From NCBI GenBank assembly GCA_043800705.1, contig JAZDMS010000035.1, positions 32,307 through 96,306 of the forward strand: a stretch of DNA of 64,000 bases. The letters are read 5' to 3'. The DNA comes from Candidatus Altiarchaeota archaeon (GTDB lineage Archaea > Altiarchaeota > Altiarchaeia > IMC4 > SCGC-AAA252-I15). Both the position numbers and the translations under genes were made by a program. The notes below the pieces were generated by a model. That model was not told the origin of the DNA and searched no databases. It saw only the letters and a program-made list of their open reading frames with translations. Positions 1 to 28,898 of the stretch are shown piece by piece; the first letter of the stretch is position 1; every line of letters begins with the position of its first letter.

Positions 1-2
1 AG

Positions 3-956: not shown

Positions 957-967
957 TTAAAAAAATT

Positions 968-1062
968 AGCGAGGGAAGGGATTCGCACCCTTGGTGGTAC
1001 GGTTTGCCGTGGCGTTTTTGGCCTTTGCAGACCGTTCTGTTGGGCTACTCCAGCACCCTCGC
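968..1062 (-). tRNA. tRNA-Cys(GCA) with 20-nt intron at 37/38 (intron 1005-1024)
   Basis: Acceptor GCGAGGG/CCCTCGC, U73 discriminator, anticodon arm ACGGT-CT GCA A[intron]A-ACCGT, T arm AAGGG-TGCGAAT-CCCTT, relaxed bulge-helix-bulge. Lies between cysE and cysS. Confidence 0.88.
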
Positions 1063-1128
1063 ATATGTATCAAATAACGTGTTGTGTTTTAAATGCCGGA
1101 GGTAAAAATCACGAAGCGATTTTATTGG

Positions 1129-1146
1129 ACTCCAGCACCCTCGCAT
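1129..1146 (-). repeat. 18-bp direct repeat of the tRNA-Cys 5' end
   Basis: actccagcaccctcgcat occurs at 1047-1064 and 1129-1146. Confidence 0.9.
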
Positions 1147-1147
1147 G

Positions 1148-1240
1148 CAGTTTTCTGTTTTCGGTTTTCCGTTTTCCGATGTCTTTATTAGACATTCATT
1201 ATTTTTTAATGCCCGAAACCGGAGACTGGAAACTGAAAAC
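1148..1240. repeat. Inverted pair of degenerate heptanucleotide tandem repeats
   Basis: cagtttt-ctgtttt-cggtttt-ccgtttt ... ccgaaac-cggagac-tggaaac-tgaaaac. Confidence 0.7.
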
Positions 1241-1241
1241 A

Positions 1242-1844
1242 TCATATGTTCCACTCCGGCGGTTTTTCCCCGGCCTCTTTGGGGTCTTTGTATCTTACGT
1301 AGGCCCCTTCGACGATGCGCAGCTGTCCTTTTGAGGTGACTACTGTGGAGTCTTCGGGGATGTCGTCGATTATGACCGTGTGCGCCCCGATTCTGCTGTT
1401 TTTCTTCACTATTACGGGGCCGAGTATGGCTGCTCCTACGCCGATGGTGACGTTGTCTTCGATGGTGGGGTGTCTTTTGTTGCCTTTTTTGTCCCTCCAC
1501 CAGCCGTGTCCTCCCAGTGTGACGCCGTGGTAGAGCATGACGTTGTCTCCTATCTCCGTCGTTTCCCCGATGACTACCCCGGTGGCGTGGTCGATGAAGA
1601 ACCGTTTCCCTATCTTCGCTGCGGGGTGGATCTCCGCGCCCGTGAGGAAGCGGCCGAGGTAGGATATCGCCCTTGGTATGAACGGGAGGCCTATGCTGTG
1701 CAGGGCGTGTGATATCCGGTAGAGGATTATGGCCTGTACGCCGGGGTACAATACCACTTCCAGGAAGTTTATCCCCTTCTTGAGCGCAGGGTCCTTTTCG
1801 TATGCCACCTGGAAGACGTCGAACATCCTATTTCCTCTCCTCAT
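1242..1844 (-). CDS. cysE: Serine O-acetyltransferase
   Basis: [34 protein letters not shown] hexapeptide-repeat signature. Confidence 0.95.
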
Positions 1845-2751
1845 ACAGCGGTGTCGAAAGGTATCTTTCGCCGGTGTCGGGGACGATGACCAATACGCGT
1901 TTTCCTTTTCCGAGCCGTTTAGCGACCGCCAGTGCCGCCCATACGTTCGCTCCGGAGGATATGCCTGCGAGGATTCCCTCCTCCTTCGCCAGCCGCTCCG
2001 ATGTCTTGTACGCGTCCTCGTTCTTCACCTGTATCACTTCGTCGACCAGCTCCTTCCGGTATATGTCCGGGACGAATCCGGCCCCAATGCCCTGTATCTT
2101 GTGGGGGCCTGGTTGTCCTCCCGAGAGGACGGGGGAGTCTGCGGGCTCGACTGCGATGAATCTTGCGTTGATGAATTTCTTCTTGAAGAAGGTCGCTATT
2201 CCGGTTATCGTCCCTCCTGTTCCGACTCCGGCGACGAATGCGTCGAATGAGCCGACTTCCGCCATTATCTCCTGCGCCGTTGTCTCGATGTGGGCTTTGA
2301 TGTTGGCCTTGTTCTTGAACTGCTGGGGGATGAAGATGTGCGGCCCTTCCTTGGCGATCTCCTCGGCCTTGGCTATCGCGCCTTTCATCCCCTTTGCACC
2401 CTCAGTCAGGATGAGCTCGGCTCCGAATGCCTTCAGTATCTTCCGTCTCTCCAAGCTCATCGTCTCCGGCATCGTCAGCTTAAGCCGGTATCCTTTGACT
2501 GCCGCGACCATGGCAAGCCCTATTCCCGTGTTGCCAGAGGTGGGCTCGACTATGATGCTTTCCTTCTTCAGGACGCCCGCCTTCTCGGCTTCCTCGATCA
2601 TGTACAATGCTATCCGGTCCTTCACCGAGGAGCCGGGGTTGAAGTATTCCAGCTTGGCTACCACTTCCGCGTCGTTTGGGCCGGGCAGCCTGTTGAGTCT
2701 CACGTGGGGTGTTCCGCCTATCGTCTCCAGTATGTTGTTTTTGATCGTCAT
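1828..2751 (-). CDS. cysK: Cysteine synthase A
   Basis: [17 protein letters not shown] lysine, [32 protein letters not shown] precedes the ATG at 2751. Confidence 0.96.
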
Positions 2752-2832
2752 TTGATTCACCTCTTTGTTATGCGTGTGGATATAAAAATCAAAGTTCGTA
2801 TTGTGTCCGGGTTTTTGTTTTGTGTCAGGCGT

Positions 2833-2901
2833 TTATAGCCTACACTGGCAGAAACAACAGCCGCATGAGCGGGCCGTGAATGCAGTTATTCCCAGATCCA
2901 T
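2833..2901 (-). CDS. Putative 22-aa poly-Cys leader peptide (MDLGITAFTARSCGCCFCQCRL)
   Basis: ATG at 2901 downstream of a TATA-like TTTATAT. Five Cys codons within 8 consecutive codons near the end, directly upstream of cysK. Confidence 0.65.
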   Translation of the reverse strand: MDLGITAFTARSCGCCFCQCRL

Positions 2902-2905
2902 TTTG

Positions 2906-2919
2906 TTAACGATTGTTAA
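2906..2919. promoter_or_regulatory. Palindromic operator TTAACGATTGTTAA (cys operon)
   Basis: Lies between the TATA box (~2934-2941) and the leader ATG. Near-identical copies at 11635-11648 and 11709-11722. Confidence 0.7.
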
Positions 2920-2965
2920 TATTATGGTGGTCCCATATAAATACTCACCCAGAGTTAATCTTAAA

Positions 2966-4105
2966 GTGGACTTCGACTGCATCCTCATTAGATACGGGGA
3001 AATAGGCCTGAAAGGCGGGAATCGGGGATTTTTCGAAAGGAAGCTCCAATCCAACATCGTTTGGGCGCTTAAGCGGGAGGGCGCCGTCTACGAAGTCGTG
3101 AAGAGGGTCCAGGGAAGGTTTCTCGTCGTATCAAAGGACGCCAAGGCTCTAGAGGCGGTAAGGAACGTCTTCGGGATAGTCTCATACAGTCCGGCCAATA
3201 TGGTAGGATGTGGGGTTGAGGAGTTGTGTGAGGCAGCCGTGAAGATAGTGGTCGCCTCGAAGCCCGATTCGTTCAGGGTAACGACGCAGAGACTGGACAA
3301 GAGGATGGATACGACCTCACAGAAGATCAACGAGGCCGTCGGGGCCGGGATCGTCGCGAGGACCGGTGCCAAAGTCAGCCTAAAGTGCGCCAAATTGGAT
3401 ATCGGATTGGATGTCACCGGCGACTGCGCATACATCTTCACTGAAACGTTCGCAGGGCTCGGAGGCCTTCCAGTCGGCGTCTCGGCAAGGGTGCTGTGCC
3501 TCCTTTCCGGGGGTATCGACAGCCCGGTCGCCGCATGGCTGATGATGAAGAGGGGGTGCCAGGTTACGCTGGTCCATTTCATGCACGAGCAGGGGTGCAG
3601 GCTGCCTACGAAGATAGAGTGCCTTTATCGGTCCCTTTGCAGGTTTGGCCCCGGCCTCAGGCTGATAGTCGTCCCTGCCGCGGAGCTTGAGCGGGAGATC
3701 ATCATGAAGGCGCCTTCGAAGGACAGGATAGTCATACTAAGGAATATGTTCCTCAAGGCTGCGGTGAAGCTACTGCGCTCCGAGAGGGCCCACGCCATCG
3801 TCACCGGAGACAACGTGGGACAGGTGGCGTCGCAGACGATAGAGAACATGGAGGCTTATCAGGCAGGCATCGACGCCCTCGTCCTGAGGCCGCTGGCATG
3901 CTATGACAAGCAGGAGATAATTGATCTGGCCAGGAGGGTCGGGACCTTCGAGGAGTCGACGTCCGCTTACGTCGACTGCTGCAGCTTCCTCGTCCCGAAG
4001 CATCCGCAGACGAAGGCCACCGCGGAGGATGTGGATTCGTCGGTCAGGTCCATGGACGAGGGCATATTGGACCTGATTCTCTCGAAGATGATTTTCATCG
4101 ATTAG
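2966..4105 (+). CDS. thiI: tRNA 4-thiouridine synthase (THUMP + PP-loop, no rhodanese domain)
   Basis: IRYGEIGLKG, GLGGLPVG, LLSGGIDSPVA, GQVASQT, DCC. GTG start at 2966 is inferred. Confidence 0.93.
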   Translation: MDFDCILIRYGEIGLKGGNRGFFERKLQSNIVWALKREGAVYEVVKRVQGRFLVVSKDAKALEAVRNVFGIVSYSPANMVGCGVEELCEAAVKIVVASKPDSFRVTTQRLDKRMDTTSQKINEAVGAGIVARTGAKVSLKCAKLDIGLDVTGDCAYIFTETFAGLGGLPVGVSARVLCLLSGGIDSPVAAWLMMKRGCQVTLVHFMHEQGCRLPTKIECLYRSLCRFGPGLRLIVVPAAELEREIIMKAPSKDRIVILRNMFLKAAVKLLRSERAHAIVTGDNVGQVASQTIENMEAYQAGIDALVLRPLACYDKQEIIDLARRVGTFEESTSAYVDCCSFLVPKHPQTKATAEDVDSSVRSMDEGILDLILSKMIFID

Positions 4106-5343
4106 TCCGTGAGCCTTTTTTCGCCTTCCAGGAGCCTGATGCCGGTGGCGTCCTGGGCGACTTCGAGCATTCCACGGTATCTTCCGTCACTGCCCCGTAA
4201 TGCGAAGAAGCGGAGGCATACGAATTTCCCCCGAAGCTGGAGCCAGTACTCGTCCGCGTCTTTCTGCCCGGACTTGAACTCCTCAATGAGCCTGTTGAGC
4301 GCCTTGCCGGCCTTGGCCGGATACATGCTCTGGATCCTTGAGCCGATAGAGTCAGGGTTCCTTGCCGTGATCCTTTGTCTGGTCCCCTGGTTGTAGTAGA
4401 CCACTATGTCGTTCTCGTCGACGAATGTCACGTCCAAGGGGAGGCTCTTGAGCAGGAGATTGACCTGTTCGTGCGTCAGGTTGCCGACATCCATATCGAG
4501 GCCTCCTGTGACTTGGACCCTGTCCGATGGCTTCGGCATGAATCCGTCCAGGGGGGACCCGTCTGATTGGGACACATCTGCGGGGCGGATGCTGTCCCAT
4601 TCATCAGCTGACATCAGGCTCAAAGCGCCGGGCAATAGGCTGTATTCCTCCTTCTTGATCTGGTCGCGCATTGTATGCATGAGGCGCCTAAGGGTCGTGA
4701 TCGATGCGGGAGCAGACTCGTTCACCTGCTTCTTGGCGAGCCGCAGAAGGGTTCTTGCGTCCTCCTCCCGGGCCCTCAGGCCTTTCATAGGCTCGACGTA
4801 GCCCTTCGATTCCAGGATCGGGAAAAGCCGGGCTTCCAGGTTGGCATAATGCTCGACGTTTTCGGATAGCCGCTCGATATGCTTTGCAAGGACGTGCTTG
4901 ACCGCGGAGAACGTCTTATTGTCCCATGTCCCGACAGCTCCGACGAGGCCGTCTATTTCCGACATGACCTTCTGCGCCTGTGCGTTCTCCGAAAGGTATG
5001 TGTCGATTAGGTGGCCTTGCGGGGCTTGAACTTTGACGCCCGCCTTCTCAGCGGCCTGGAAGACGTCCAGCGGCTTTGGGCCCTCTGCATGGGGGGCAAT
5101 ATTCCCAGCGCCTTTGCCCCCTTCGTTCCTTTGTATCTCGCCATTAAGTGCCCGGATGAGGTTTGCGACGTCGACGCCGCCCATACCCGCAAGCTCCTGG
5201 AGGGTGGCGATGTTCCCCATGGTCTTCCTCACGAGAGGATTGCGCAGACGGTCGTATTTTGGCGAGACGTTCAGGAGGAAATCAAGGAGGTAGGGATATT
5301 TCAGGAACAAGGCCCCCATCTTAGTCTCAGGTGCAAGGTCCAC
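4102..5343 (-). CDS. DUF1858/DUF438 hemerythrin-like + PAS-domain protein
   Basis: N-terminal LRNPLVRKTMG, HY..LE..LFP helical bundle, C-terminal LPLDVTFVDEND...YRGMLEVAQD PAS. Start is uncertain. Confidence 0.75.
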   Translation of the reverse strand: MDLAPETKMGALFLKYPYLLDFLLNVSPKYDRLRNPLVRKTMGNIATLQELAGMGGVDVANLIRALNGEIQRNEGGKGAGNIAPHAEGPKPLDVFQAAEKAGVKVQAPQGHLIDTYLSENAQAQKVMSEIDGLVGAVGTWDNKTFSAVKHVLAKHIERLSENVEHYANLEARLFPILESKGYVEPMKGLRAREEDARTLLRLAKKQVNESAPASITTLRRLMHTMRDQIKKEEYSLLPGALSLMSADEWDSIRPADVSQSDGSPLDGFMPKPSDRVQVTGGLDMDVGNLTHEQVNLLLKSLPLDVTFVDENDIVVYYNQGTRQRITARNPDSIGSRIQSMYPAKAGKALNRLIEEFKSGQKDADEYWLQLRGKFVCLRFFALRGSDGRYRGMLEVAQDATGIRLLEGEKRLTD

Positions 5344-5365
5344 GGACAAGATTATGAACCGAAGA

Positions 5366-6064
5366 TTATAAGCCCTCGGCCATGCTGTCAAGGAGCAGGA
5401 AAATGAGCCTTTTGGTCTCGCTGGTCCTCCAGGCATTGGTAAGGATCCCGTAAGGAGTACCTACGTATCTTCCGGGGACCAAGTCATCAGCAGATTCTGT
5501 TGCCATGGTCCGGACGTCCTGCATTGAGTATTCCAGGTGAAACTGTAGGCCGACGACTTTCCCGTCCAAGCCTTCGAATGCCTGGTTTGCGCAGGCCTTG
5601 CTCGCCGCGGTCCTCGTGCAGCCTTCAGGTATCGTGAATGTGTCTGCGTGCCAGTGCATAGGCCGGAATTTTTCCGGAAATCCCGCGAATGCCCGTGAAC
5701 GGCGTCCTTCATCGGTGATGGATGTCTCATGCCAGCCGATCTCCCGTTCATTATTGCGGGTGACTTTCCCCCCAAGGATTATTGACAGAAGCTGCGCCCC
5801 CAGGCAGACTCCGAGGACGCATTTTTTCGCATCAACGGCCTCCGCCAGGAAAGTCTTCTCTCTGGCAAGCCAGGCGTGCTTCTCATCTGCGTAGGCGTTC
5901 ATAGGGCCGCCCAAAACAGCAATCAGGTCGAAATCACCCACCAGGGGCAGTGATTCCCCAAGGTATAGGCGCGTGCATGCCGTCTTATGTCCCCTCTCCC
6001 TTGCCCAGGCGGCGATGTTAGCCGGCCCTTCGTTGGGGACATGCTGCAGGAGATGTACATTCAT
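5366..6064 (-). CDS. Type 1 glutamine amidotransferase-like protein
   Basis: LGGPM, GVCLGAQ nucleophile elbow, QFHLE triad. Confidence 0.9.
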   Translation of the reverse strand: MNVHLLQHVPNEGPANIAAWARERGHKTACTRLYLGESLPLVGDFDLIAVLGGPMNAYADEKHAWLAREKTFLAEAVDAKKCVLGVCLGAQLLSIILGGKVTRNNEREIGWHETSITDEGRRSRAFAGFPEKFRPMHWHADTFTIPEGCTRTAASKACANQAFEGLDGKVVGLQFHLEYSMQDVRTMATESADDLVPGRYVGTPYGILTNAWRTSETKRLIFLLLDSMAEGL

Positions 6065-6372
6065 TGGCGTATCATTACCAATAGCATCTTGAACCTTTTT
6101 ATCGCCTTAAGCGCGTGGGTTTTGTTCGCCGGCATGATTATGTATTCGCCTGCCTTCAGCGTATGTGGCGTTCCGGCGATTGAGACCTCGGCCTCTCCGT
6201 CAAGGACCTGGACGAATGCGTCGAACGGGGCTGTGTGCTCGGACAGGCCCTGGCCGGCGCCGAATGCGAACGACGTTATCGACCCCGCCTGCTTGTCGAT
6301 TATTTCCCTGCTGATTATCGAATCGTCCTGGTAGTCGAGTTCCAGACGCCCCGGTTTCCCTGCCTGCATCAT
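6061..6372 (-). CDS. Cupin domain protein
   Basis: FGAGQGLSEHTAPFDA and MPANKTHAL cupin motifs. Confidence 0.88.
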   Translation of the reverse strand: MMQAGKPGRLELDYQDDSIISREIIDKQAGSITSFAFGAGQGLSEHTAPFDAFVQVLDGEAEVSIAGTPHTLKAGEYIIMPANKTHALKAIKRFKMLLVMIRQ

Positions 6373-6599
6373 ACGGCCACCACAGACCGCACCTTAGGCA
6401 CTACAGCCCTTATGTGCCGCTCTATCCCGTGCTTCAGGGTCATCTGGCTCATCGGGCATCCGCAGCATCCGCCGGTGAGGCGGACTTTCACGACTCCGTC
6501 CTCGGACACTTCGACCAGTTCCACTCCTCCGCCGTCGGCCTCCAGCATCGGCCTCACTTCCCCCAACGCCTTCTCAACTTCTTCTTTCATTTTTCCCAT
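6369..6599 (-). CDS. NifU C-terminal-like (Nfu) Fe-S carrier
   Basis: VRPMLEADGGGVEL...LTGGCCGCPMSQMTLKHGIE. The real gene is the last 76 aa of track ORF 6369..6956. Confidence 0.92.
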   Translation of the reverse strand: MGKMKEEVEKALGEVRPMLEADGGGVELVEVSEDGVVKVRLTGGCCGCPMSQMTLKHGIERHIRAVVPKVRSVVAV

Positions 6600-7471
6600 T
6601 CCTCCGAGAGTATCTCTCCCCTTATGCTCACGATTATCGATTTTATCGGAACCTTCCTCTTCGCCTGCGATGCGGCCCCCTTTACCAGGTGAACCAGTCC
6701 TCCGCAGCATGGGACCTCCATCATCACGACAGTGAGGGTGTTGACTTTCGCGTCGTCGATGAGGGATGCTATCTTTTGGGCATAAACGTCCTGGTCTGAG
6801 TCCAGTTTCGGGCATGCTATGGCGATGCTCCTGCCGGAGAGTATCCTGCCGTGGAATCCTCCGAGCGCGTATGCGGTGCAGTCCGCGGCGATGACCACGT
6901 CCTTCCCTCGGTAGTATGGCGCCTGCGGCGAAACCAGATGCAGTTGGATAGGCCATTGGCGAAGCTGCGACGACGTGTCGCCGGTCTCATCGCCCCCTGT
7001 TTTCCGGTCTTCGGTCTTCGGTCCTCCGTCTTCAGTCTCGAAGCTCACCATCCTCGACCCCGGACAGCCTCCGCCGTCTGAGGGGCAGCCTCCACCCGAA
7101 CCGTGCAGGTCCGGGGCCGGTATCCCCTTGTCCTTCAATGCGGCAAGTGCCTCCTTTAGGTAGCCGAATTCGCCGTGCTCCTTCAGGTGGATGAGATGCG
7201 CCTTGATCGTGTTCGGTCCTGCCTTAATGATGTTCTCCATGACCTTCTTCTCCTCGTACGGCTTCGCATCCCGCTCCACAACCTTCATAGCCCCGGTGGG
7301 GCAGTGGCCCACGCATGCGCCAAGGCCGTCGCAGAACAGGTCGCTTATGAGCCGCGCCTTCCCATCTATTACCTGGAGCGCACCTTCAGGGCAGTTTGGG
7401 ATGCATTGCCCGCATCCGTTGCATTTGTCCTCTTCGACCGCTATGATCTTCCGTTTAGCCATTTTTCCCAC
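6587..7471 (-). CDS. 4Fe-4S dicluster ferredoxin-domain protein
   Basis: CNGCGQCIPNCP, CDGLGACVGHCP, SQLRQWPIQL, IACPKLD, MEVPCC. Confidence 0.9.
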   Translation of the reverse strand: MGKMAKRKIIAVEEDKCNGCGQCIPNCPEGALQVIDGKARLISDLFCDGLGACVGHCPTGAMKVVERDAKPYEEKKVMENIIKAGPNTIKAHLIHLKEHGEFGYLKEALAALKDKGIPAPDLHGSGGGCPSDGGGCPGSRMVSFETEDGGPKTEDRKTGGDETGDTSSQLRQWPIQLHLVSPQAPYYRGKDVVIAADCTAYALGGFHGRILSGRSIAIACPKLDSDQDVYAQKIASLIDDAKVNTLTVVMMEVPCCGGLVHLVKGAASQAKRKVPIKSIIVSIRGEILSEEWEK

Positions 7472-7802
7472 CCATCCTGACGCATTTTCCCCCTCCGGCG
7501 AGTATGCCGCACTGGCAGAGGTCTCCCCCGAATTCTCCCATATAGGAGTCTATGGAAGCCAGTAAAGGTGAGGCGAATCTATCGTCGAGCGAGTAAAGGA
7601 CATTCTTTCCTTCCCGCCTGGATGCGACAAGGCCCCATGCGTCAAGGAGCGCGAGACTGTGACTTATCCGGCTCTGCTCGAGACCCGTCTTTTTGCATAT
7701 TTCCGATACATTTTTTGGTCCACCCCTCAGGGATGAGACAACGGAAAGCCGGGTGCGGTTGCCCAACGCCTTGAAGAAGAGTTCATATGAACATTTTTTC
7801 AT
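7455..7802 (-). CDS. ArsR/SmtB family repressor
   Basis: FKALGNRTRL, QSRISHSL, SRREGKNVLYSL; Cys-rich C-terminus. Confidence 0.9.
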   Translation of the reverse strand: MKKCSYELFFKALGNRTRLSVVSSLRGGPKNVSEICKKTGLEQSRISHSLALLDAWGLVASRREGKNVLYSLDDRFASPLLASIDSYMGEFGGDLCQCGILAGGGKCVRMGGKNG

Positions 7803-7806
7803 ATGA
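7783..7806. promoter_or_regulatory. ArsR/SmtB-type operator overlapping the repressor start codon
   Basis: TCATATGAA-catttt-TTCATATGA inverted repeat resembling the SmtB 12-2-12 box. Confidence 0.65.
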
Positions 7807-7861
7807 GTATAATGGTTCCGGAAGATATTTATGGAGTGCAGTAACCGTGCGGTAATCGTCC

Positions 7862-8419
7862 TCAGATCTTCTGGGCCTTGTCTGCGGCTTCGATCACAAG
7901 GTTCACTACGTTCACCAGTGTCTTCTTGTCCTTAACAGACCCGTTGTCGACATAGGATATGTCGTGCCTTCCGATGGTGAACCCTATTCCGCACGAGGTT
8001 ATCTTCCCCTGCATGTCGGCGTCCAGATATCTTTTAACCGTCTCAGGGTCTCCGCCTTTTACCCTGAATCTGCCCATGAACTCCGGGTTGACGCATTCGA
8101 ATTTCATGAAACCCGGCTTCCTTGCGGCACCGGCCAGGTAGTCGGCCTTCCCGACGGTGAATCCCTCTCCGACGTTCCCGTTGTGGATTACCCGTACCCG
8201 AAGAGAAACGCCGACAGTGTCGATGATAACCTCGAATCCTCGGATGTGGCCGTTGGCCCTCGACGCGCCCATGAACTGCGACGAGTAGGCGAGGCCGAGC
8301 TCTGATGCGACGGATTTTATGAGGCGGCCGCGGCCGCTTGCGCGAAACGCCTTCAATGCGATGAGAGACGCGACTGCCGCTATCGCAGCCAATGCTATAA
8401 GACCGATGTCCATTGCCAC
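7862..8419 (-). CDS. Hypothetical protein, N-terminal membrane anchor
   Basis: Hydrophobic N-terminus; architecture similar to 51676..52263. Confidence 0.7.
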   Translation of the reverse strand: MAMDIGLIALAAIAAVASLIALKAFRASGRGRLIKSVASELGLAYSSQFMGASRANGHIRGFEVIIDTVGVSLRVRVIHNGNVGEGFTVGKADYLAGAARKPGFMKFECVNPEFMGRFRVKGGDPETVKRYLDADMQGKITSCGIGFTIGRHDISYVDNGSVKDKKTLVNVVNLVIEAADKAQKI

Positions 8420-8499
8420 GGATAGTACTTCGGAGTGTATATTAAAGTCTTGTATGTTACCGGGTGGAAACCCTTTAATGTAATAATCTTCCCGCCATC

Positions 8500-8907
8500 A
8501 TGGTTGACATGGATGGGTCAATCGCCATTTCGCTCGTAATGGCGGTCGCAGCGGCTTCGGGCTGTATCTCATCCGGGGGCGTTTACGATGTTAGCCTGCA
8601 TGAGGGAAGGAGCATTATAGATGACAACAGGGGAAACCCTGATTTCGTCATCCTGGACGTGCGTACTCCCGAAGAGTACTCGGCTGGCCATATTGAGGGG
8701 GCAGTGCTTTTGGACTTTGAGGCCGATGACTTCAAACAGAAGGCCGATGGGCTGCCGAGGCAGAAGACATATATAGTATACTGCAGGAGCGGCCGAAGGA
8801 GCGCTGAGGCCGTCAATGCATTGTCCGGGCTGGGTTTCAGGGACCTCCACAACATGAGGGGCGGGATAACGGAGTGGAAGGCAGAGGGGTACCCCACAGT
8901 CAGTTAG
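8500..8907 (+). CDS. Secreted/lipid-anchored rhodanese-domain protein
   Basis: SGC lipobox-like signal, LDVRTPEEYSAGHIEGA, YCRSGRRS, GGITEW. Confidence 0.9.
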   Translation: MVDMDGSIAISLVMAVAAASGCISSGGVYDVSLHEGRSIIDDNRGNPDFVILDVRTPEEYSAGHIEGAVLLDFEADDFKQKADGLPRQKTYIVYCRSGRRSAEAVNALSGLGFRDLHNMRGGITEWKAEGYPTVS

Positions 8908-9023
8908 GCTTTTTATCATCTGGCATGAGTCCGTGCAGGAGCCATCCCTTCGCCCCCGGTTTGCACGGGGCATTTCTTTTCTCGCATCTTCCATCGAGCT
9001 CATGTGGGCAGCTCCAGGCCATC

Positions 9024-10157
9024 TTACCGTTCTAGGGCGTTCTTTTCTAGAAAGTCGACGAGGACGTTGCCGAGGGTGTTGTTGTAGACGAGGAATGCGT
9101 CGTGGCCGTATGGGAGGTCCAGTTTCCGGTAGACTGATGGGACTCCCGCCTCCGCGAGCCCTGCGAAAACCTCCTCGACCTGCTGCGGCGGATAAAGCCA
9201 GTCCGACGTGAATGAGACCAGCAGCACCTTCGCCTTGACCGTCTTGAACACGTCCTTCAGATCCCTCCTTCCGCCTTCGGTGAGGTCGAACTGGTCTATT
9301 GCGTTCGTGATGTAGAGGTAGCTGTTGGCGTCGAACCTGCGCACGAAGCTCTTGCCGTTGTAGTCGAAGTAGCTTTGCAGCTCGTACTCTATCCCGAACT
9401 TTTTCTTTCCGTTCTTCCCCTTAACCTTCTCCCTGCCGAACTTCTTAAGGAGGGTCTCCTGGCTGAGGTATGTGACGTGCCCGATCTGCCGCGCCAGCGA
9501 CAGGCCGCGCTTCGGCTGCCCCCTCGGGTAGTAGTTGCCTCCGTTGTAGTCGGGGTCGGAGAGGATTATCCTCCGGCCTATGTCGTTGAAGACGAACCCT
9601 ATAGGGTACTGCTTCGCCGACGCTGCGACGACTATGGCGGACTTCACGCTGTCAGGGTAGTCGACGGCCCACTGCAGCGCCTGCATCCCGCCCAGGCTGC
9701 CGCCGGTGACGCAATGCAGTTTCTTTATTCCAAGATGGTCGATGAGCTGCTTCTGCGCGCGGACGATGTCGCGGACGGTGATTATCGGGAAGTCGAGGCC
9801 ATATGGTTTCCGTGTCTTGGGATTTATGGAAGACGGGCCGGTCGAGCCCCTGCATCCGCCTATGACGTTCGAGCAGATGACGAAGTATTTTCTCGTATCG
9901 AAGGACTTCCCAGGGCCGACTGCCACATCATACCAGCCGTGCTTACTGGATCCGATCCTGCTCTTTCCGGCGGCGTGGGCGTCTCCCGACAGGGCGTGGC
10001 AGAGGAGGATGACATTGGTGCGCTCAGCGTTGGGTTTCCCGTATGTCTCGTACGCTATCCGGACGGGAGCCAGCTTTTCGCCGCTATCGAGCGCGAGCTC
10101 CGGGAATTCCCAGTATTTTGTCTTCACGACCCCTACAGATCCGTGCCTTCTTGCCAT
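9024..10157 (-). CDS. metX: Homoserine O-acetyltransferase
   Basis: CHALSGD, GGCRGSTGP, GGSLGG nucleophile, RFDANSY, GHDAFL. Confidence 0.93.
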   Translation of the reverse strand: MARRHGSVGVVKTKYWEFPELALDSGEKLAPVRIAYETYGKPNAERTNVILLCHALSGDAHAAGKSRIGSSKHGWYDVAVGPGKSFDTRKYFVICSNVIGGCRGSTGPSSINPKTRKPYGLDFPIITVRDIVRAQKQLIDHLGIKKLHCVTGGSLGGMQALQWAVDYPDSVKSAIVVAASAKQYPIGFVFNDIGRRIILSDPDYNGGNYYPRGQPKRGLSLARQIGHVTYLSQETLLKKFGREKVKGKNGKKKFGIEYELQSYFDYNGKSFVRRFDANSYLYITNAIDQFDLTEGGRRDLKDVFKTVKAKVLLVSFTSDWLYPPQQVEEVFAGLAEAGVPSVYRKLDLPYGHDAFLVYNNTLGNVLVDFLEKNALER

Positions 10158-10168
10158 CTTCTTTCCCC

Positions 10169-10309
10169 CTAACAGCCGCATGATATGCGGCCTTTTAATT
10201 GTGCCCCACAATGCCAGCATCTGCCCGTGGTGACCGCGATGTGCCGGAATATGCATCCATGGCAGTTGTCGCAGACAACCTCCTGAGGCTTCTTTTCCTT
10301 CGTTGTCAT
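10169..10309 (-). CDS. 46-aa Cys-rich micro-protein (zinc-ribbon-like)
   Basis: MTTKEKKPQEVVCDNCHGCIFRHIAVTTGRCWHCGAQLKGRISCGC. Fills the metY-metX gap and has two CxxC pairs. Confidence 0.7.
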   Translation of the reverse strand: MTTKEKKPQEVVCDNCHGCIFRHIAVTTGRCWHCGAQLKGRISCGC

Positions 10310-10313
10310 CTTT

Positions 10314-11606
10314 CTATACCTCCTTCAAGGCTCCGTCCAAGTCGGCGGTTATGTCGTCGACGTTCTCGAGGCCTATAGACAGCCGGACCAGGTCGGGGGT
10401 GATGCCGCCCTCCAGGAGCTGTTTCTCAGATAGCTGGCTGTGTGACGTGCTTGCCGGATGCAACGCAAGGCTCTTCGCGTCGCCGACGTTCGCCAGATGC
10501 GAGAACAGCTTCAGACCGTTTATCAGCTTCTCGCCGGCCGGCCTTCCTCCTTTGACGCCAAAGACGATCACTCCGCCGTATCCCTTCTTCAGGTACTTCT
10601 TGGCATTGTCATGTGTCGGGTGCGTGTCGAGGCCGGGGTATTTGACCCAGGTCACTTTGTCGTGGGCTTCGAGGTGTTCCGCGACCTTCAGGGCGTTCTG
10701 ACTGTGCCGCTCTAGCCGCAGGTTCAGGGATTCCAGCCCCTGCAGGAATATCCACGAGTTGTCCGGGCTTATGCAGCCGCCGAGGTTCCGTAAGGGGACC
10801 AGCCTCATTCGGAGTATGTATGCCAGGGGGGTCAACGGGCCGAGGTCGAACGCGTATCTGAGGCTGTGGTAGCTCGCGTCCGGTTCCGTAAGGAGCGGGT
10901 GTTTCTTCGATTTGCTCCAGTCGAATCTCCCGCTGTCGATGACCGCGCCGCCTATCGCAGTCCCGTGTCCGCCTATCCACTTCGTCAGCGAATGGGCGAC
11001 TATGTCCGCTCCGTGCTCGATCGGGCGCAGAAGGTACGGCGTCGTGAATGTGCTGTCTATGATGTAGGGTATGCCGTTGTTGTGGGCGATGTCCGCCAGC
11101 TCCTTGAAGTCGGGGACGTTCAATGCCGGATTTCCGATTGTTTCCGTGAATAGCGCCTTCGTCTTCGGCGTGATCGCCTTCTTCGCCTTGTCCGGGTCAG
11201 TTGGGTCGAAGAAGTTCGTCCTTATCCCAAAGTCGGGGAGGATGTTGTTGAACTGGGTATAGGTCCCCCCGTACAGGTCGTTGGCTGACGCTATCTCGTC
11301 GCCGACCCTCGCAAGGTTGATTATGCTGTAGAAAATCGCAGTAGTGCCGGACGATAGCGCCAGCCCTCCGACTCCGCCTTCAAGGGCGGCTAGGCGTTTT
11401 TCAAGCACATCGGTGGTCGGGTTCATGAGCCGGGTGTATATGTTCCCGAGCTCCTTCAGCCCGAACAGGTTCGCGGCGTGCGTTGCGTCCTTGAAGACAT
11501 AGCTCGACGTCCTGTGAACGGGCACCGCCCTCGCCAGAGTCGTGGGGTCTACTTCCTGACCTGCATGAATTGCCTTCGTTTCGAATTTTTTATCCTCTTG
11601 CGCCAT
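10314..11606 (-). CDS. metY: O-acetylhomoserine sulfhydrylase
   Basis: IYTRLMNPT, HSLTKWIGGHG PLP lysine, HLANVGDAKSL, HPASTSHSQL. Confidence 0.95.
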   Translation of the reverse strand: MAQEDKKFETKAIHAGQEVDPTTLARAVPVHRTSSYVFKDATHAANLFGLKELGNIYTRLMNPTTDVLEKRLAALEGGVGGLALSSGTTAIFYSIINLARVGDEIASANDLYGGTYTQFNNILPDFGIRTNFFDPTDPDKAKKAITPKTKALFTETIGNPALNVPDFKELADIAHNNGIPYIIDSTFTTPYLLRPIEHGADIVAHSLTKWIGGHGTAIGGAVIDSGRFDWSKSKKHPLLTEPDASYHSLRYAFDLGPLTPLAYILRMRLVPLRNLGGCISPDNSWIFLQGLESLNLRLERHSQNALKVAEHLEAHDKVTWVKYPGLDTHPTHDNAKKYLKKGYGGVIVFGVKGGRPAGEKLINGLKLFSHLANVGDAKSLALHPASTSHSQLSEKQLLEGGITPDLVRLSIGLENVDDITADLDGALKEV

Positions 11607-11634
11607 TTTCGTTTTACCTCCAACAATCCGTGGA

Positions 11635-11648
11635 GTAACAATCGTTAA
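11635..11648. promoter_or_regulatory. Operator GTAACAATCGTTAA upstream of metY
   Basis: 13 bp identical to the reverse complement of the cys operator. Abuts the minus-strand TATA box at 11651-11662. Confidence 0.7.
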
Positions 11649-11708
11649 GTCTTATATAAATATCTTTCGTTTTTTTTATGCAGATTAGCATAACTTATGC
11701 ATATTAAA

Positions 11709-11722
11709 TTAACTATTGTTAA
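11709..11722. promoter_or_regulatory. Operator TTAACTATTGTTAA upstream of HTH regulator
   Basis: Same palindrome, ending 8 bp before the regulator's GTG start. Confidence 0.65.
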
Positions 11723-11730
11723 GTCTATAG

Positions 11731-12021
11731 GTGAAACTTCCATGTGAACAGGCATTGTGGTACGTCCTTCCGCAGATACGCGCGGACATAGCAAGGGAAC
11801 TCATCGAGAGGGGGATGAACCAAAAGCAGGCTGCGAAGAAGCTGGGCGTCACTCCGTCTGCCGTCTCCCAGTACCTGAACAAGAAAAGGGCAGGCAAGCT
11901 TAAGCTGCCGGCAGACTACTCCAGCCTGATCAAGGATGCAGTAGAGGACATCATCAAGAACGAAGACGACGAGGTGCTGTCCGTAACGATCTGCAAATGC
12001 TGCGCCAAATCCAGAGGCTGA
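11731..12021 (+). CDS. Small archaeal HTH transcriptional regulator (COG2522-like)
   Basis: PCE...LPQIRADIAREL, QKQAAKKLGVTPSAVSQYL HTH, C-terminal CKCC. Confidence 0.85.
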   Translation: MKLPCEQALWYVLPQIRADIARELIERGMNQKQAAKKLGVTPSAVSQYLNKKRAGKLKLPADYSSLIKDAVEDIIKNEDDEVLSVTICKCCAKSRG

Positions 12022-12164: not shown

Positions 12165-14021
12165 ATGAACAGTACCCTAACCAAGGCGTGCATGATCCTC
12201 GCGCTCGCGGGATTCGCAGCCGGTGCCGCATCATACGAGGCAGACGGACACTTCGCGAAGGCGGAGGAGGACTACCGGCTCCAGACATACAGGAATGCGC
12301 TGATTGAGGTGTTTCTCGCAAGGGACGAATACAACGAGTCCGGCAACATCTGGGGGATGCAAAAGTGCGACCGGCTCGTGACGCAGATCGAGTCCTCGAT
12401 GAACCCGACACAGATCGCCGACACATACTACGGGATAGCGAGCGACTACTTCACGGATTCGCAGGACGACACGGAGGCCCTCGGAAGGGCCGCCAGGATG
12501 GGGGAACGCTGCGTCGCTGTCTGCTTCACGAACATCACATGCGGACTCAGGTGCGCCGACCTGGCCGGCAAGGCGAACGCCAGGATCAACGACATCGTCA
12601 ACAGGTGCATAAGGGAGGCGCAGGCGCGGCTGCAGAGCGCCAAGGACAACATTGACGACTACCTGAACGCGCGCGAACTTGCGACTAGCGCCAGCGCGAA
12701 ATTCTCGGAATGCGGATACAGGAAGGGCGTCGAAGAGGCCTCTTCGGTGCTGGCTTCGATCGACGAGAAGATGAGGAATGTCAGGATGAACGCAGCCGCG
12801 CTCACCGACCAGGCATACGAGGACTATGCCAGAGGGGACAACGAATCCTGCGTCCAGAACGCCAACAAGTCGCTCAGCCTCTATGGAAGGATAGGGGACC
12901 CGGACGGCATGCAGAAGGCGAGGATGATACTCGAAGAATGCGAGGGGACGCTCAGGGACTGGGAGACGCAGCTGAACAAGGATGCGGGGGAGTACATGCA
13001 GGACGCATACGACGCATACAAGGTCGACATGCCCCCCGACTGCGACAGCGCCGCGAGGAACGCGACCGCCGCAAAGGGCCTCTACCAGCAACTTTACGAC
13101 AAATTCAGCGTGCAGGAGAAGGACAAACCCACGAACCTCCAGTTCAAGACCGGAGAATACGCGGTAAAACTGTCGCAGGTCGCAGCTCTCATCGCGGACA
13201 TCCAGACGGTCAAGTCGCACGTCATAGCATTGGACACCGCCGAAAGCTTCTACATGAGGGCGTTCGACGAATACCTCGTACACAACTACAACGACGCGAG
13301 GTCGTACGTCAGGAAGGCCAAGGAGATGTTCCAGGGGAACGAGGACTACCCCAACGCAAGAAAATGCGACTCCCTGGCCGCCAGGATAGAGGAGGACGAC
13401 GGGAAGATGACGCAGGCCACAGCCCACCTGGAGGAGGCGAAGAGGATGCTGGACGACTTCAGGTTCCAGGAGGCCTTGACCGGATTGTCGAAGGCAAGGG
13501 GGCTGTACCTGGCCATAAAGTACGATGAAGGGGCGAAGAAGGCTGACCAGCTGGAGGCCTCGATAACACAGGTCGCGGCAAAACTGGGCAAAGCAAACGA
13601 CTTCCTGTCCAAGGCCGCAGCCTACAGGCGAGAGGGGAGATACGAGGATGCGATAGCCGCCGCCACCGAGGGGCGCCTGATCTACTCCGAGATAAAGCAT
13701 GCAAAAGGCGTCGAATCGGCGGACAAGCTCATCACAGAAGGCAGGAGGATAATGGATGAAGAGGCCGGCAGGAGGAGCCTCTACATAGTCTGCGCACTCT
13801 TCGTGTTCGTCGTCTCTGCAGCTCTGGCCGTACAATACAGGAGCAGGAAGTCGGCGGTGGAGGAAAAGCTCAGGAGGGGCGAGGTTGAGGCGCAGGAGAA
13901 GATGCGCAGGCAGACGGAGGCGATGAGCATAAGGACAGAGGAGGAGACGAAGACTCAGGTGGAGACCGAACTTCGGAGGCTCGTCGACAGCGAGCGGAAG
14001 AAGATCGACGACGGCCTCTGA
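12165..14021 (+). CDS. Membrane-anchored helical-repeat (TPR-like) protein
   Basis: Signal peptide, repeated A..A...Y..G helices, C-terminal TM segment and charged coiled-coil tail. Confidence 0.75.
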   Translation: MNSTLTKACMILALAGFAAGAASYEADGHFAKAEEDYRLQTYRNALIEVFLARDEYNESGNIWGMQKCDRLVTQIESSMNPTQIADTYYGIASDYFTDSQDDTEALGRAARMGERCVAVCFTNITCGLRCADLAGKANARINDIVNRCIREAQARLQSAKDNIDDYLNARELATSASAKFSECGYRKGVEEASSVLASIDEKMRNVRMNAAALTDQAYEDYARGDNESCVQNANKSLSLYGRIGDPDGMQKARMILEECEGTLRDWETQLNKDAGEYMQDAYDAYKVDMPPDCDSAARNATAAKGLYQQLYDKFSVQEKDKPTNLQFKTGEYAVKLSQVAALIADIQTVKSHVIALDTAESFYMRAFDEYLVHNYNDARSYVRKAKEMFQGNEDYPNARKCDSLAARIEEDDGKMTQATAHLEEAKRMLDDFRFQEALTGLSKARGLYLAIKYDEGAKKADQLEASITQVAAKLGKANDFLSKAAAYRREGRYEDAIAAATEGRLIYSEIKHAKGVESADKLITEGRRIMDEEAGRRSLYIVCALFVFVVSAALAVQYRSRKSAVEEKLRRGEVEAQEKMRRQTEAMSIRTEEETKTQVETELRRLVDSERKKIDDGL

Positions 14022-26763: not shown

Positions 26764-26796
26764 AGGGGGTAATGAAATTGTTTTCCCCATTAAATG

Positions 26797-27204: not shown

Positions 27205-27350
27205 TTTGTCACTTCGGTGAGGCATCCATAGGGGGGATATGTTTTGCGGTGGGGTTGTCCTGTGTTCACTCCTAGATTGGGAGAGCATCACTTCGCCCAG
27301 AGACGAACCTTGTAGGGTTCATGGTTGCGCAGGGGCCGTTTCCACCGCAA
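27188..27350 (+). ncRNA. Candidate structured RNA (unassigned)
   Basis: c(TTCG)g hairpin; TTGCGGTGG/CCACCGCAA 9-bp closing stem with internal G-U-supported hairpins. Confidence 0.35.
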
Positions 27351-27434
27351 TGTTGCCTGTACCTCTTGACGCCAGCCGTTCATCAGATCGCGGAGGCCTT
27401 CGCAGGCAGGCTAGAATATTAGGGGCGGACTCGC

Positions 27435-28859: not shown

Positions 28860-28898
28860 TCGAGGCCACAATATTAGACAAAAAAAAATTAAAAAAAA

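Follow-up and report, generated by a model that had tools for sequence, protein, structure and literature searches.

A candidate XRE-type regulator and its proposed 14-bp palindromic operator at sulfur-assimilation genes of Altiarchaeota

Gene content and promoter elements of the locus

Analysis of the 64-kb window (the whole stretch of DNA analysed) showed three copies of a palindrome in front of cysteine and methionine synthesis genes and of a gene for a small helix-turn-helix (HTH) protein. The features of the locus are as follows.

1828..2751, minus strand: cysK, O-acetylserine sulfhydrylase, 307 aa (TIGR01139, 444 bits vs cut-off 351)
2833..2901, minus strand: Cys-rich leader mini-gene, 22 codons and a stop, translation MDLGITAFTARSCGCCFCQCRL, with 5 Cys
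2906..2919, no strand: operator copy 1, TTAACGATTGTTAA, exact, in the divergent region between cys leader/cysK (minus) and thiI (plus)
2934..2943, no strand: TATA element, CATATAAATA (TATTTATATG on the minus strand), read by eye
2966..4105, plus strand: thiI, tRNA 4-thiouridine sulfurtransferase (TIGR00342, 326.6 bits vs cut-off 264.5)
9024..10256, minus strand: metX, homoserine O-acetyltransferase (NF001209, 468.7 bits vs cut-off 331)
10314..11606, minus strand: metY, O-acetylhomoserine sulfhydrylase, 430 aa (TIGR01326, 618.8 bits vs cut-off 495)
11635..11648, no strand: operator copy 2, GTAACAATCGTTAA, one mismatch, between metY TATA and start
11653..11660, minus strand: metY TATA box, TTTATATA, read by eye
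11701..11708, plus strand: TATA-like element of the HTH promoter, ATATTAAA, read by eye
11709..11722, no strand: operator copy 3, TTAACTATTGTTAA, exact, proposed autoregulatory site
11731..12021, plus strand: gene of a 96-aa XRE-type HTH protein, proposed repressor (PF01381 match; Cys5, Cys88, Cys90, Cys91)

On the minus strand, operator copy 1 follows TATTTATATG (2943-2934) and ATAATAT and ends 4 nt before the leader ATG (2901). In relatives the operator likewise lies 1-5 nt ahead of the cys-leader ATG, with a recurring TTTTTATA box 15-17 nt upstream of it. The TATA element at 2934-2943 probably serves both directions, the cys leader and thiI. Seen from thiI, operator copy 1 sits upstream of the TATA element, which is not a repressor position, and thiI was not a target at any of the relatives' sites examined; regulon membership of this divergent neighbour is uncertain. 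Read on the minus strand, operator copy 2 comes 4 nt after TTTATATA, with 28 nt between it and the metY ATG (11606). The genes metY and metX, on the same strand with a 57-nt gap, probably form one operon. The metY operator was found as an exact copy in 6 other genomes and as a one-mismatch copy in G009. Operator copy 3 comes directly after ATATTAAA, with 8 nt left to the GTG start of the HTH gene (11731), and the HTH promoters of relatives carry TATAAAA(A) 2 nt before the operator. All three copies lie between a TATA-like box and a start codon, as the sequence-only reading had claimed, with the TATA boxes read by eye. A gene for a NifS-like cysteine desulfurase, a proposed member of the regulon, is located 1.9 kb upstream of the window.

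Occurrence of the palindrome in the window and the source genome

The operator form is a 14-bp TTAAC-NATN-GTTAA, a perfect palindrome and hence usable in either orientation. Exact matches to TTAACNATNGTTAA in the window were found at 2906-2919 (TTAACGATTGTTAA) and 11709-11722 (TTAACTATTGTTAA), and none of 100 dinucleotide shuffles of the window reached at least 2 matches. The copy at 11635-11648, GTAACAATCGTTAA (GTAAC...), agreed at 11 of the 12 specified bases. The sequence-only reading had placed the palindrome at all three positions, which was exact for the first and third and one base off at 11635-11648. Its remark that no other copy was noticed by eye proved right for the 64 kb at up to one mismatch, and a search with up to two mismatches gave a single extra match, TAAACAATGTTTAA at 51474.

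The scan of the source genome (2,003,634 bp, 43 contigs, GC 55.4%) showed that the motif is rare, with 4 exact, 4 one-mismatch and 20 two-mismatch copies in 2.0 Mb. TTAAC-N4-GTTAA occurred 5 times genome-wide, while the same half-sites with a 2-, 3- or 5-base spacer were not found. Four composition-matched control palindromes gave 0, 0, 3 and 0 occurrences in the same genome.

Co-occurrence of the palindrome and the HTH gene across Altiarchaeota

The comparison covered 61 genomes of the phylum Altiarchaeota, with the HTH gene detected by profile search and the palindrome by exact match. The exact palindrome was present in 24 of the 26 genomes with the HTH gene vs 3 of the 35 without it (one copy each), counts that overstate independent support because the genomes are mutually related metagenome bins, 57-97% complete. 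Overall, 27 genomes had an exact site and 32 had neither site nor gene. In the two genomes with the HTH gene and no exact site, either a one-mismatch site was present (G040) or the HTH promoter itself carried a 13-mer variant (G055). Copies of the palindrome numbered 1-9 per genome, and a reversed control pattern gave 1 match each in 3 of the 61 genomes.

A site in the HTH gene's own promoter (at most one mismatch, within 250 bp upstream) was found at 23 of 27 HTH loci. Nine of the 27 loci had the operator at -21 to -23 and 13 had it at -15 to -28, and at the typical position of -21 to -23 it comes just after TATAAAA. Several relatives have a second copy at -60 to -86, on the far side of the TATA from the HTH gene.

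The nifS gene was found in 37 of the 61 genomes, 21 with and 16 without the HTH gene. In the 60 bp ahead of nifS, 8 of the 21 had an exact site vs none of the 16, which indicates that the site depends on the regulator and not on the target gene. Genome G001, from the same genus as the source organism and 92% complete, keeps the cysK TATA box, the Cys leader ORF and nifS; neither protein nor profile search found the HTH gene in it, and no palindrome was present at its cysK leader or before nifS. Palindrome and HTH gene appear to have been lost together in G001, as a natural loss. Two marks of an operator-repressor pair, a site conserved in the regulator's own promoter and a site present only where the regulator is present, were seen in these comparisons.

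Target genes of the proposed operator

The target genes of 63 exact sites in 41 genomes were tallied by hand. A proportion of the sites (20) were in HTH promoter regions, often common to cysK; cysK alone was the gene behind 5 sites, metY behind 6 and nifS behind 7. Another 9 preceded further genes of sulfur or Fe-S function, namely Thi4, ThiS (2), a 441-aa PLP enzyme (2), CBS, CysS, SufBD and a Fer4 protein, and about 11 preceded genes with no evident sulfur link. At cysK, a recurrent target, the operator reaches the gene via the Cys-rich leader mini-gene. The sequence-only reading had described a Cys/Met regulon; the Cys and Met genes were indeed among the targets, but the limit to them did not stand, as the sites also precede cysteine desulfurase, Thi4, ThiS/MoaD-like carriers, CysS, SufBD and other regulators. 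The unit is best described as a putative regulon for sulfur assimilation and trafficking, beyond Cys and Met.

Cys-codon leader of cysK

A leader ORF with at least 2 Cys that ends in C-R-[L/V/A] was found at 12 of 15 cysK loci; one further locus had a leader with 1 Cys (by eye) and two had no leader. A short Cys-rich ORF before a cysteine gene, as in a Cys-codon-leader attenuator, is kept in relatives. Most of 13 single-sequence folds showed a leader hairpin whose loop contained or adjoined the stop codon, with G002 and G006 folding otherwise and the stems differing between genomes, and oligo-T runs follow the leader region in most sequences. RNAalifold on the gapped leader alignment gave no pairs, and the Rfam search of the leader gave no match. 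A second layer of control at cysK is proposed, in which the Cys-codon-rich mini-gene between operator and gene may act on cysK expression.

In mycobacteria, polycysteine leaderless short ORFs make up a 'Cys ribulon' (Canestrari et al., bioRxiv 10.1101/834739). The likeness concerns the cysK leader only, namely a Cys-codon-rich short ORF at the transcript 5' end, without a Shine-Dalgarno leader, before a cysteine-metabolism gene. The cysK leader, a putative control element, differs in being archaeal and in sharing its promoter with a proposed protein operator. Its C-R-[L/V/A]-stop end is conserved, the stop codon falls in the loop of a predicted hairpin, and an oligo-T run comes after it.

Features of the HTH protein

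The 96-aa protein matched Pfam HTH_3 (PF01381) with 34.6 bits vs a cut-off of 23 over residues 22-53, as did most orthologues, and no NCBIfam model matched it. In a comparison with the five-helix fold of lambda-repressor-like proteins, the AF2 model showed five helices with a pLDDT of 84, and solved XRE structures matched it weakly and in the HTH part only. No close solved structure was found with Foldseek or VIA. The best Foldseek rows were the controller protein C.Esp1396I (E 0.26, TM 0.38) and the best VIA row was the DeoR DNA-binding domain (Z 5.7 over 48 residues).

The PCE and CKCC cysteines named in the sequence-only reading were confirmed as LPCE (Cys5) and ICKCC (Cys88, 90 and 91). 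In a 34-sequence alignment C88 and C91 were invariant and C5 was conserved in at least 90%. The Cys5/Cys88/Cys91 triad was present in 94 of 139 diverse family representatives and missing in 45, so that Cys-based sensing cannot be a family-wide property. Positions 5 and 88 co-varied among the same representatives (both Cys in 96, both non-Cys in 29, mixed in 14).

The family comprises about 1,200 clusters (50% identity, E<=1e-10) in archaea and Chlorobiaceae, and reaches methanogen-containing phyla and green sulfur bacteria. It had been called a poorly characterised archaeal family, and it is uncharacterised but not archaeal only, as about 65 of the best 80 genomic relatives of the protein were from Chlorobiaceae. 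These orthologues are 51-58% identical to the 96-aa protein; 56 of the 65 loci had no motif copy (at most one mismatch) within 700 bp upstream of the HTH gene, and cysK was absent from their gene context. The literature searched contained nothing on the family or on the 14-bp motif.

Proposed mechanism and alternative explanations

The explanation that best fits the data as a whole, and that is considered likely, is that the 96-aa XRE-type protein (11731-12021) binds TTAAC-NATN-GTTAA, presumably as a dimer, and represses sulfur-gene promoters in response to a signal read by cysteines. The operator would lie between the TATA box and the transcription start, or across the start, and four promoters would be repressed, those of the HTH gene itself, the Cys-leader/cysK, metY-metX and the NifS-like cysteine desulfurase gene. 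Control in relatives may extend to Thi4, ThiS/MoaD-like sulfur carriers, a threonine-synthase-like PLP enzyme, CysS, SufBD and Fe-S proteins, which the operator also precedes there. The signal is probably read by the conserved Cys5/Cys88/Cys91 group, and sensing could rely on an Fe-S cluster or metal held by the protein, or on chemistry of thiols, disulfides or persulfides. From the window, control of sulfur amino-acid synthesis had been assigned to an autoregulated repressor of a poorly characterised family. The cross-genome comparison supports such an autoregulated factor, a putative repressor and Cys-based sensor, through the co-occurrence counts, the own-promoter sites, the recurrence before cysK, metY and nifS, and the loss in G001.

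The palindrome could instead be a true operator read by a 289-aa double winged-helix protein or by the DUF7343/MarR-like protein beside nifS, with the XRE-HTH gene merely a member of the regulon. The 289-aa regulator gene has an exact site immediately before it in G000, G005 and G016. G014 has one upstream of the DUF7343 gene (158 aa), and in several genomes the DUF7343 gene adjoins nifS and its site. However, full-length 289-aa orthologues (E<=4.7e-40) were found in only 7 of 41 genomes, motif-free G001 included, and close DUF7343 orthologues (E<=3.4e-37) in 12 of 41, motif-free G008 included, while at that threshold no DUF7343 orthologue was found in site-bearing G007, G009, G012, G017, G018, G024, G028 and G029. 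The XRE-HTH gene distribution (exact site in 24/26 vs 3/35) fits better, and a different reader of the site is quite unlikely. There is a slender chance that the XRE-HTH protein binds the palindrome as an activator, or as an activator at some promoters and a repressor at others, as suggested by the operator upstream of the TATA relative to thiI and by the relatives' second copy beyond the TATA from the HTH gene. These far-side copies are, however, accounted for as operators serving the divergent cys-leader promoter, and for the gene nearest to each site the operator either follows the TATA closely or comes 15-17 nt later, where transcription is expected to start. Archaeal repressors that block initiation-complex assembly typically sit just downstream of the TATA or over the start site.

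It is highly improbable that the motif is a promoter or initiator variant, or an RNA-acting element at the transcript 5' end, and not a protein operator. It is always near a TATA box and a start codon, and part of it is possibly transcribed in the cys-leader mRNA. A general promoter element, however, would not be confined to 1-9 copies per genome, nor would it be missing from the promoters of nifS and cysK in precisely those genomes that lack the HTH gene; moreover, the distance from motif to TATA varies (2-4 nt or 15-17 nt) and, as a perfect palindrome, the motif works in either orientation.

Going further than repression by the XRE-type protein, a more speculative possibility, on balance doubtful, is that it is the first member of a new class of XRE sensors, in which a Cys triad would read Fe-S or persulfide/redox status. 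Sulfur assimilation in Altiarchaeota would then be under its master control, as it perhaps would in the many other archaea and the Chlorobiaceae with the family, and the protein would act at cysK in series with a ribosome-read Cys leader.

Comparison with known regulators

In Bacillus subtilis and Staphylococcus aureus, cysteine metabolism is under the master repressor CymR, an Rrf2-family protein that complexes with CysK and senses O-acetylserine. As with CymR, one small proposed repressor would shut off cysK and other sulfur-assimilation genes via a common operator, but here with an XRE-type HTH (PF01381), a conserved Cys triad as the only visible sensor, and in another domain of life. IscR is an Rrf2-family [2Fe-2S] sensor controlling isc/suf and its own gene. 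It shares with the present system the proposed autoregulation, the cysteine desulfurase and Fe-S assembly targets and three conserved Cys as candidate cluster ligands, but there is no sequence or fold relation, and the proposed regulon of the HTH protein centres on Cys and Met synthesis. Membership of the Rrf2 family (IscR, CymR, NsrR; PF02082) was rejected, with no Rrf2 among Pfam matches at E<=1e-3 and no NCBIfam match.

SurR, the sulfur-response regulator of Thermococcales, is a winged-helix protein with an N-terminal CxxC redox switch that recognises a GTTn3AAC motif at hydrogenase and S0-reduction genes. It too is an archaeal regulator with a short palindromic promoter motif, and a cysteine-based response to sulfur status is proposed here as well; unlike SurR, the protein described here has a single XRE-type HTH in 96 aa, the motif TTAAC-N4-GTTAA and sulfur-assimilation targets. 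A SurR-type assignment was rejected, as Cys5 alone is N-terminal, the CxxC is C-terminal and the half-sites are TTAAC/GTTAA with a 4-bp spacer. Archaeal MBF1 has an N-terminal four-Cys zinc ribbon before HTH_3 in about 150 aa, and was also rejected for this 96-aa protein, which has one N-terminal Cys and matched neither a zinc-ribbon nor an MBF1 model of Pfam or NCBIfam. Like small XRE/Cro-C1 repressors (C.Esp1396I and the DeoR DNA-binding domain), the protein is small, has an HTH_3 core and is proposed to regulate its own gene through a palindromic operator; unlike these matches, it adds a long N-terminal helix with P-C-E, two C-terminal helices and a CxxC.

The literature searched gave no archaeal transcription factor that controls the making of cysteine or methionine or the trafficking of sulfur, and two-tier control of cysteine synthesis (transcription factor and leader peptide) was not found described for Archaea. 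The operator-regulator pair is new relative to the sources searched. A 14-bp operator, a 96-aa candidate regulator and coherent conserved targets (cysK, metY-metX, nifS, Thi4, ThiS/MoaD-like carriers, CysS and SufBD) are in hand, and the hypothesis is testable with one recombinant protein and a few oligonucleotides despite the organism being uncultured. With such a large family, a result could show what many genes do that now bear no other name than 'helix-turn-helix domain-containing protein', and the co-varying Cys5/Cys88 pair is a concrete handle on possible sulfur, Fe-S or redox sensing.

Palindrome copies in the window and the source genome

A rare palindrome is tied to one HTH gene across genomes and lies between a TATA element and a start codon, or over the expected start site; the targets so placed are a recurrent set of sulfur genes and the HTH gene itself. 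The palindrome is the 14-bp TTAAC-NATN-GTTAA, a predicted operator, and the HTH gene codes for a 96-aa XRE-type protein, the proposed repressor. The genes around the three sites of the window were as follows:

1828-2751, minus strand, cysK (TIGR01139)
2966-4105, plus strand, thiI (TIGR00342)
9024-10256, minus strand, metX
10314-11606, minus strand, metY (TIGR01326)
11731-12021, plus strand, HTH gene, divergent from metY

Exact matches of TTAACNATNGTTAA in the window were found at 2906-2919 (TTAACGATTGTTAA) and 11709-11722 (TTAACTATTGTTAA), and two matches were obtained in 0 of 100 dinucleotide-preserving shuffles of the window. The sequence-only reading had listed three copies of the palindrome, and these two stand as exact, but the one at 11635-11648 (GTAACAATCGTTAA) carries one mismatch. 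With up to two mismatches allowed, the sole further match in the window was at 51474. The 11709-11722 site adjoins ATATTAAA and ends 8 nt before the HTH gene's GTG start codon; the 11635-11648 site (minus strand) is placed 4 nt past TTTATATA and 28 nt ahead of the metY ATG. The 2906-2919 site is located between cysK (minus strand) and thiI (plus strand), where positions 2934-2943 read CATATAAATA, a TATA element, toward thiI and TATTTATATG on the other strand, 14 nt upstream of the operator. Control of thiI as the main reading of this site was set aside, as the site lies upstream of the thiI TATA element and shows the same cys-leader geometry as in relatives; thiI was not seen as a palindrome target in any relative. 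Scanning 2700-3000 for sigma-70 promoters and hairpin terminators yielded nothing of use for an archaeon.

The source genome (2.0-Mb assembly, 43 contigs, GC 55.4%), in which the window spans C5:32307-96306, contained 4 exact copies, 4 with one mismatch and 20 with two. TTAAC-N4-GTTAA occurred 5 times in it, 4 of them with the NATN centre, and the same half-sites with a spacer of 2, 3 or 5 bases occurred 0 times, while four control palindromes of equal base composition gave 0, 0, 3 and 0 copies. Of the 8 copies at up to one mismatch, 2 may be chance. Besides the two exact sites in the window, the 8 copies were (contig:position):

C5:30439, exact, 1.9 kb ahead of the window and immediately upstream of the gene for a NifS/IscS-like cysteine desulfurase
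C18:11913, exact, preceding the gene of a 289-aa double winged-helix protein
11635-11648 of the window, one mismatch, metY promoter
C18:16636, one mismatch, before an ApbE-family gene
C1:40963, one mismatch, between an ORF of unknown function and a CBS-domain gene
C17:88, one mismatch, before a phage integrase gene

The sites at C17:88 and C1:40963 are the two that may be chance matches, as comparison with relatives lends them no support. When sites chosen by the pattern were made into a position weight matrix, it found the same 7 sites of this genome again at 16 bits or more, which is circular and does not count as evidence.

Sulfur and Fe-S genes are densely clustered over window positions 1-12021 together with 26000-34000 of the same contig. 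The order is TtuA/NcsA-like tRNA thiolase, DUF7343 regulator, nifS, cysS, cysK, thiI, hemerythrin/DUF1858/PAS protein, GATase, cupin, NifU, ferredoxin-domain protein, ArsR, rhodanese, metX, metY and the HTH gene. Immediately after the HTH gene comes a 618-aa ORF (12165-14021, plus strand), for which Pfam and NCBIfam gave no match.

Co-occurrence of palindrome and HTH gene in Altiarchaeota

The exact palindrome was present in 27 of 61 genomes of the phylum, and a profile search found the HTH gene in 26. The 61 genomes are incomplete, mutually related bins, and the counts below are not independent trials.

Table. Co-occurrence of the HTH gene and the exact palindrome in 61 genomes
HTH gene present (26 genomes): exact site, 24; no exact site, 2 (G040, G055)
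HTH gene not found (35 genomes): exact site, 3 (G023, G031, G048); no exact site, 32

Exact sites summed to 68 over the genomes with the HTH gene. G023, G031 and G048 had one exact site each, the N positions being C or G, and a reversed, non-complemented control pattern gave a single match in each of 3 genomes. The nifS gene was found in 37 of the 61 genomes, 21 with and 16 without the HTH gene; an exact site within 60 bp upstream of nifS was present in 8 of the 21 (G000, which is the source genome, G002, G003, G004, G006, G024, G028 and G045) compared with 0 of the 16. The palindrome thus appears to follow the regulator and not the target gene. A cysK gene (E<=1e-60) was detected in 16 of 61 genomes, 15 of which had the HTH gene. 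The exception, G001 (same genus, 92% complete), retains a TTTTTATA box ahead of cysK along with a leader ORF that contains Cys (MATPKTAPEGLCFSHCRLC), and no palindrome was found upstream of cysK or nifS (G001:C48:20400-21500 and G001:C15:9650-10400). This looks like joint loss of regulator and operators, although it is conceivable that the HTH gene of G001 is present but unassembled.

Another factor could read the palindrome, and two proteins were considered: the 289-aa double winged-helix protein, whose gene follows an exact site, and the 158-aa DUF7343 protein encoded beside nifS. Both fit the motif distribution much worse than the XRE-HTH gene. Full-length orthologues of the former (E<=4.7e-40) were found in only 7 of 41 genomes, palindrome-lacking G001 among them, while close orthologues of the latter (E<=3.4e-37) were found in 12 of 41, including motif-free G008 and missing eight motif-bearing genomes. 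On this distribution, the two proteins are better read as putative members of the regulon, which would make a small regulatory cascade.

Phylogenetic footprinting of HTH promoters

Orthologues of the HTH protein were found in 23 of the 41 nearest genomes. The suggested autoregulation agreed with footprinting, as the palindrome is kept at up to one mismatch within 250 bp upstream of the HTH start codon at 23 of 27 ortholog loci, a set that includes the source genome's own locus and five G021 paralogues; none was found in that interval at L012, L023, L026 and L031. The commonest operator position was -21 to -23, directly past a TATAAAA box, which suggests that the HTH transcripts are leaderless.

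In several genomes, one TATA element (GTATAAAAAC / GTTTTTATAC) lies between two operators 39 bp apart, the operator 2 nt from the TATA being on the HTH-gene side and that 15-17 nt from it on the divergent cys-leader side (L017:1787-1839, L021:1794-1846, L016:1491-1543, L006:1416-1468). Such an arrangement constitutes a predicted compact bidirectional control region. Some HTH promoters carry, in place of the 14-bp site or in addition to it, a 13-bp variant (TTAAC-N3-GTTAA, G/C-rich in the centre) that had 0 copies in the source genome. This variant occurred near the HTH start codon besides the 14-bp copy at five loci (L006:1481-1493, L008:1480-1492, L009, L013, L014) and also in the own promoter of the G055 HTH gene (L177), and may be a weaker autoregulatory site.

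Target genes

Targets were taken as the nearest ORFs leading away from a site within 350 bp, using our own ORF calls and a Pfam and NCBIfam scan, and the 63 exact sites of the first 41 genomes were tallied by hand.

Table. Genes at 63 exact sites in 41 genomes
HTH promoter regions, mostly in common with cysK, once with metY and once with Thi4: 20
cysK alone: 5
metY: 6
nifS: 7
Further sulfur or Fe-S genes: 9
Genes of two other regulators: 4
ApbE: 1
Unannotated, or without an obvious connection to sulfur: 11

The 9 other sulfur or Fe-S sites comprised Thi4 (1), ThiS/MoaD-like carriers (2, one of them ahead of a ThiF/MoeB-like gene), CysS (1), SufBD (1), a 441-aa threonine-synthase-like PLP enzyme (2), cystathionine beta-synthase (1) and a 280-aa ferredoxin-domain protein (1). 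The 11 sites of the last group included PdxS, a BadF/BcrA-type ATPase, SOD, a DsbD_2 protein, three G021 genes, the sole site in each of G023 and G031, and a site close to the end of a contig with no ORF assigned. Identification of the ApbE-family target as the COG2122 sulfide-assimilation protein was not adopted because the ApbE Pfam model matched over the full length, whereas COG2122 is described as only distantly related to ApbE (PMC5764234).

In relatives without a detected cysK, the operator precedes the 441-aa PLP enzyme (L038:2821-4146, L048:654-1982, L174:1061-2386; below NCBIfam cut-offs) and a ThiS/MoaD-like carrier (L038:1758-2057, L174:3148-3447). Together these may provide a thiocarboxylate-dependent route to cysteine or homocysteine. 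G052 showed the same pattern as its congener G035, with sites at the PLP enzyme, ThiS, Thi4 and its own HTH gene.

HTH protein family

Pfam HTH_3 was the sole family assignment of the HTH protein, and NCBIfam had no model for it. AlphaFold2 predicted five helices (4-26, 31-38, 42-49, 63-76 and 80-94; mean pLDDT 84). A family profile against PDB sequences found generic HTH proteins only, the best natural one being a lambda-repressor-like protein (E 4e-5, 51 residues); Foldseek against PDB gave no match at E<=1e-3, and an all-against-all structural search reached a best Z of 5.7 (generic HTH similarity). A complex prediction of two copies with a 4Fe-4S cluster scored 0.03, a score from which nothing was drawn.

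In a 34-sequence alignment P4, E6, W10, P14, R17, Y48, R53, C88 and C91 were invariant, and C5 was conserved in at least 90%. The triad Cys5/Cys88/Cys91 was complete in 94 of 139 diverse representatives (85-190 aa); 96 had Cys at both position 5 and position 88, 29 had another residue at both (mostly Gln) and 14 were mixed, the representatives being mutually related and the counts not independent. Such co-variation hints at contact between the start of helix 1 and the last helix, with Cys5 and Cys88 acting together. Among members that lack Cys5, many have additional Cys and His in a C-terminal tail.

At 50% identity, the family comprised 1,206 clusters at E<=1e-10 and 2,816 at E<=1e-3. The best 80 genomic relatives were Altiarchaeota and about 65 Chlorobiaceae, including cultured Chlorobium, Chlorobaculum and Prosthecochloris, while feature-based neighbours in the ESM Atlas were mainly Methanobacteriota, Halobacteriota and Bathyarchaeota, all generically named. 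The Chlorobiaceae orthologues (L078-L145; 51-58% identity) are widespread in green sulfur bacteria, and this two-domain distribution suggests gene transfer. Only 9 of 65 Chlorobiaceae loci had the palindrome at up to one mismatch within 700 bp upstream, and the HTH gene was mostly followed by a 410-aa protein of unknown function and a CcsB-like gene, not cysK.

Proposed mechanism

Archaeal operators placed between TATA and start usually act by blocking assembly of the initiation complex. The HTH protein would bind the palindrome as a dimer, block such assembly and so repress transcription, including that of its own gene, with its DNA affinity set through the Cys5/Cys88/Cys91 group. We consider it likely that operator, repressor and regulon belong together in this way. 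For the signal, the rough weighting is as follows: ligation of an Fe-S cluster or metal by the triad is put at a little under an even chance, structural cysteines with another effector or partner protein are rather unlikely, and a thiol/disulfide or persulfide switch is slightly less likely again.

An autoregulated small repressor with a palindromic operator is an ordinary kind of system. No literature on the HTH family, the motif or an archaeal Cys/Met regulator was found in the sources covered, which exclude subscription journals. New with respect to these searchable sources are the regulator family (an XRE HTH protein with a co-varying Cys group), the predicted operator, and the putative assignment of a regulon for sulfur assimilation and trafficking in an archaeal phylum.

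Leader mini-gene of cysK

The term cys leader, used for this region in the sequence-only reading, proved apt: between the palindrome and cysK, an ATG 4 nt after the 2906 site (minus strand) opens a 22-codon ORF, MDLGITAFTARSCGCCFCQCRL (2833-2901), 81 nt upstream of cysK. The Cys-codon-rich leader region (2752-2901, minus strand) has counterparts at L006, L010, L014-L017, L019, L021, L022, L034, L051 and L052. A leader ORF of 22-25 codons with at least two Cys codons was present at 12 of 15 cysK loci, starting 1-5 nt past the operator (38 and 42 nt at two loci); one further cysK locus had a single-Cys leader, read by eye, and at two loci cysK followed the operator directly.

The leader ORF ends in C-R-[L/V/A]-stop, mostly C-Q-C-R-x, and the final Cys codon, TGT, was invariant in 13 aligned leaders. 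The stop codon lay in or beside a hairpin loop in most of the 13 single-sequence folds (G002 and G006 fold differently), with stems that vary by genome (e.g. AGGC/GCCT, GGGT/ACCC, AGGG/CCCT, GTTGTCT/AGACAAC, AGAGC/GCTCT). From a gapped alignment of the 13 leader ends, in which loops of unequal length had put the stems out of register, RNAalifold obtained 0 pairs, and Rfam (E-value thresholds) gave no match in 2600-3100. A conserved CGGAC and an oligo-T run follow the leader, ahead of the cysK ribosome-binding site; it could serve either as an archaeal terminator or as a second promoter's TATA box. The mini-gene may be an archaeal cysteine attenuator that is read by the ribosome, the closest published analogue found being the mycobacterial polycysteine leaderless short ORF (bioRxiv 10.1101/834739). 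At the G016 locus (L008:274-1314), the cysK open frame extends stop-free about 37 codons above the conserved start, to 6 nt from the operator, and may represent an in-frame leader fusion or else an artefactual start-codon call.
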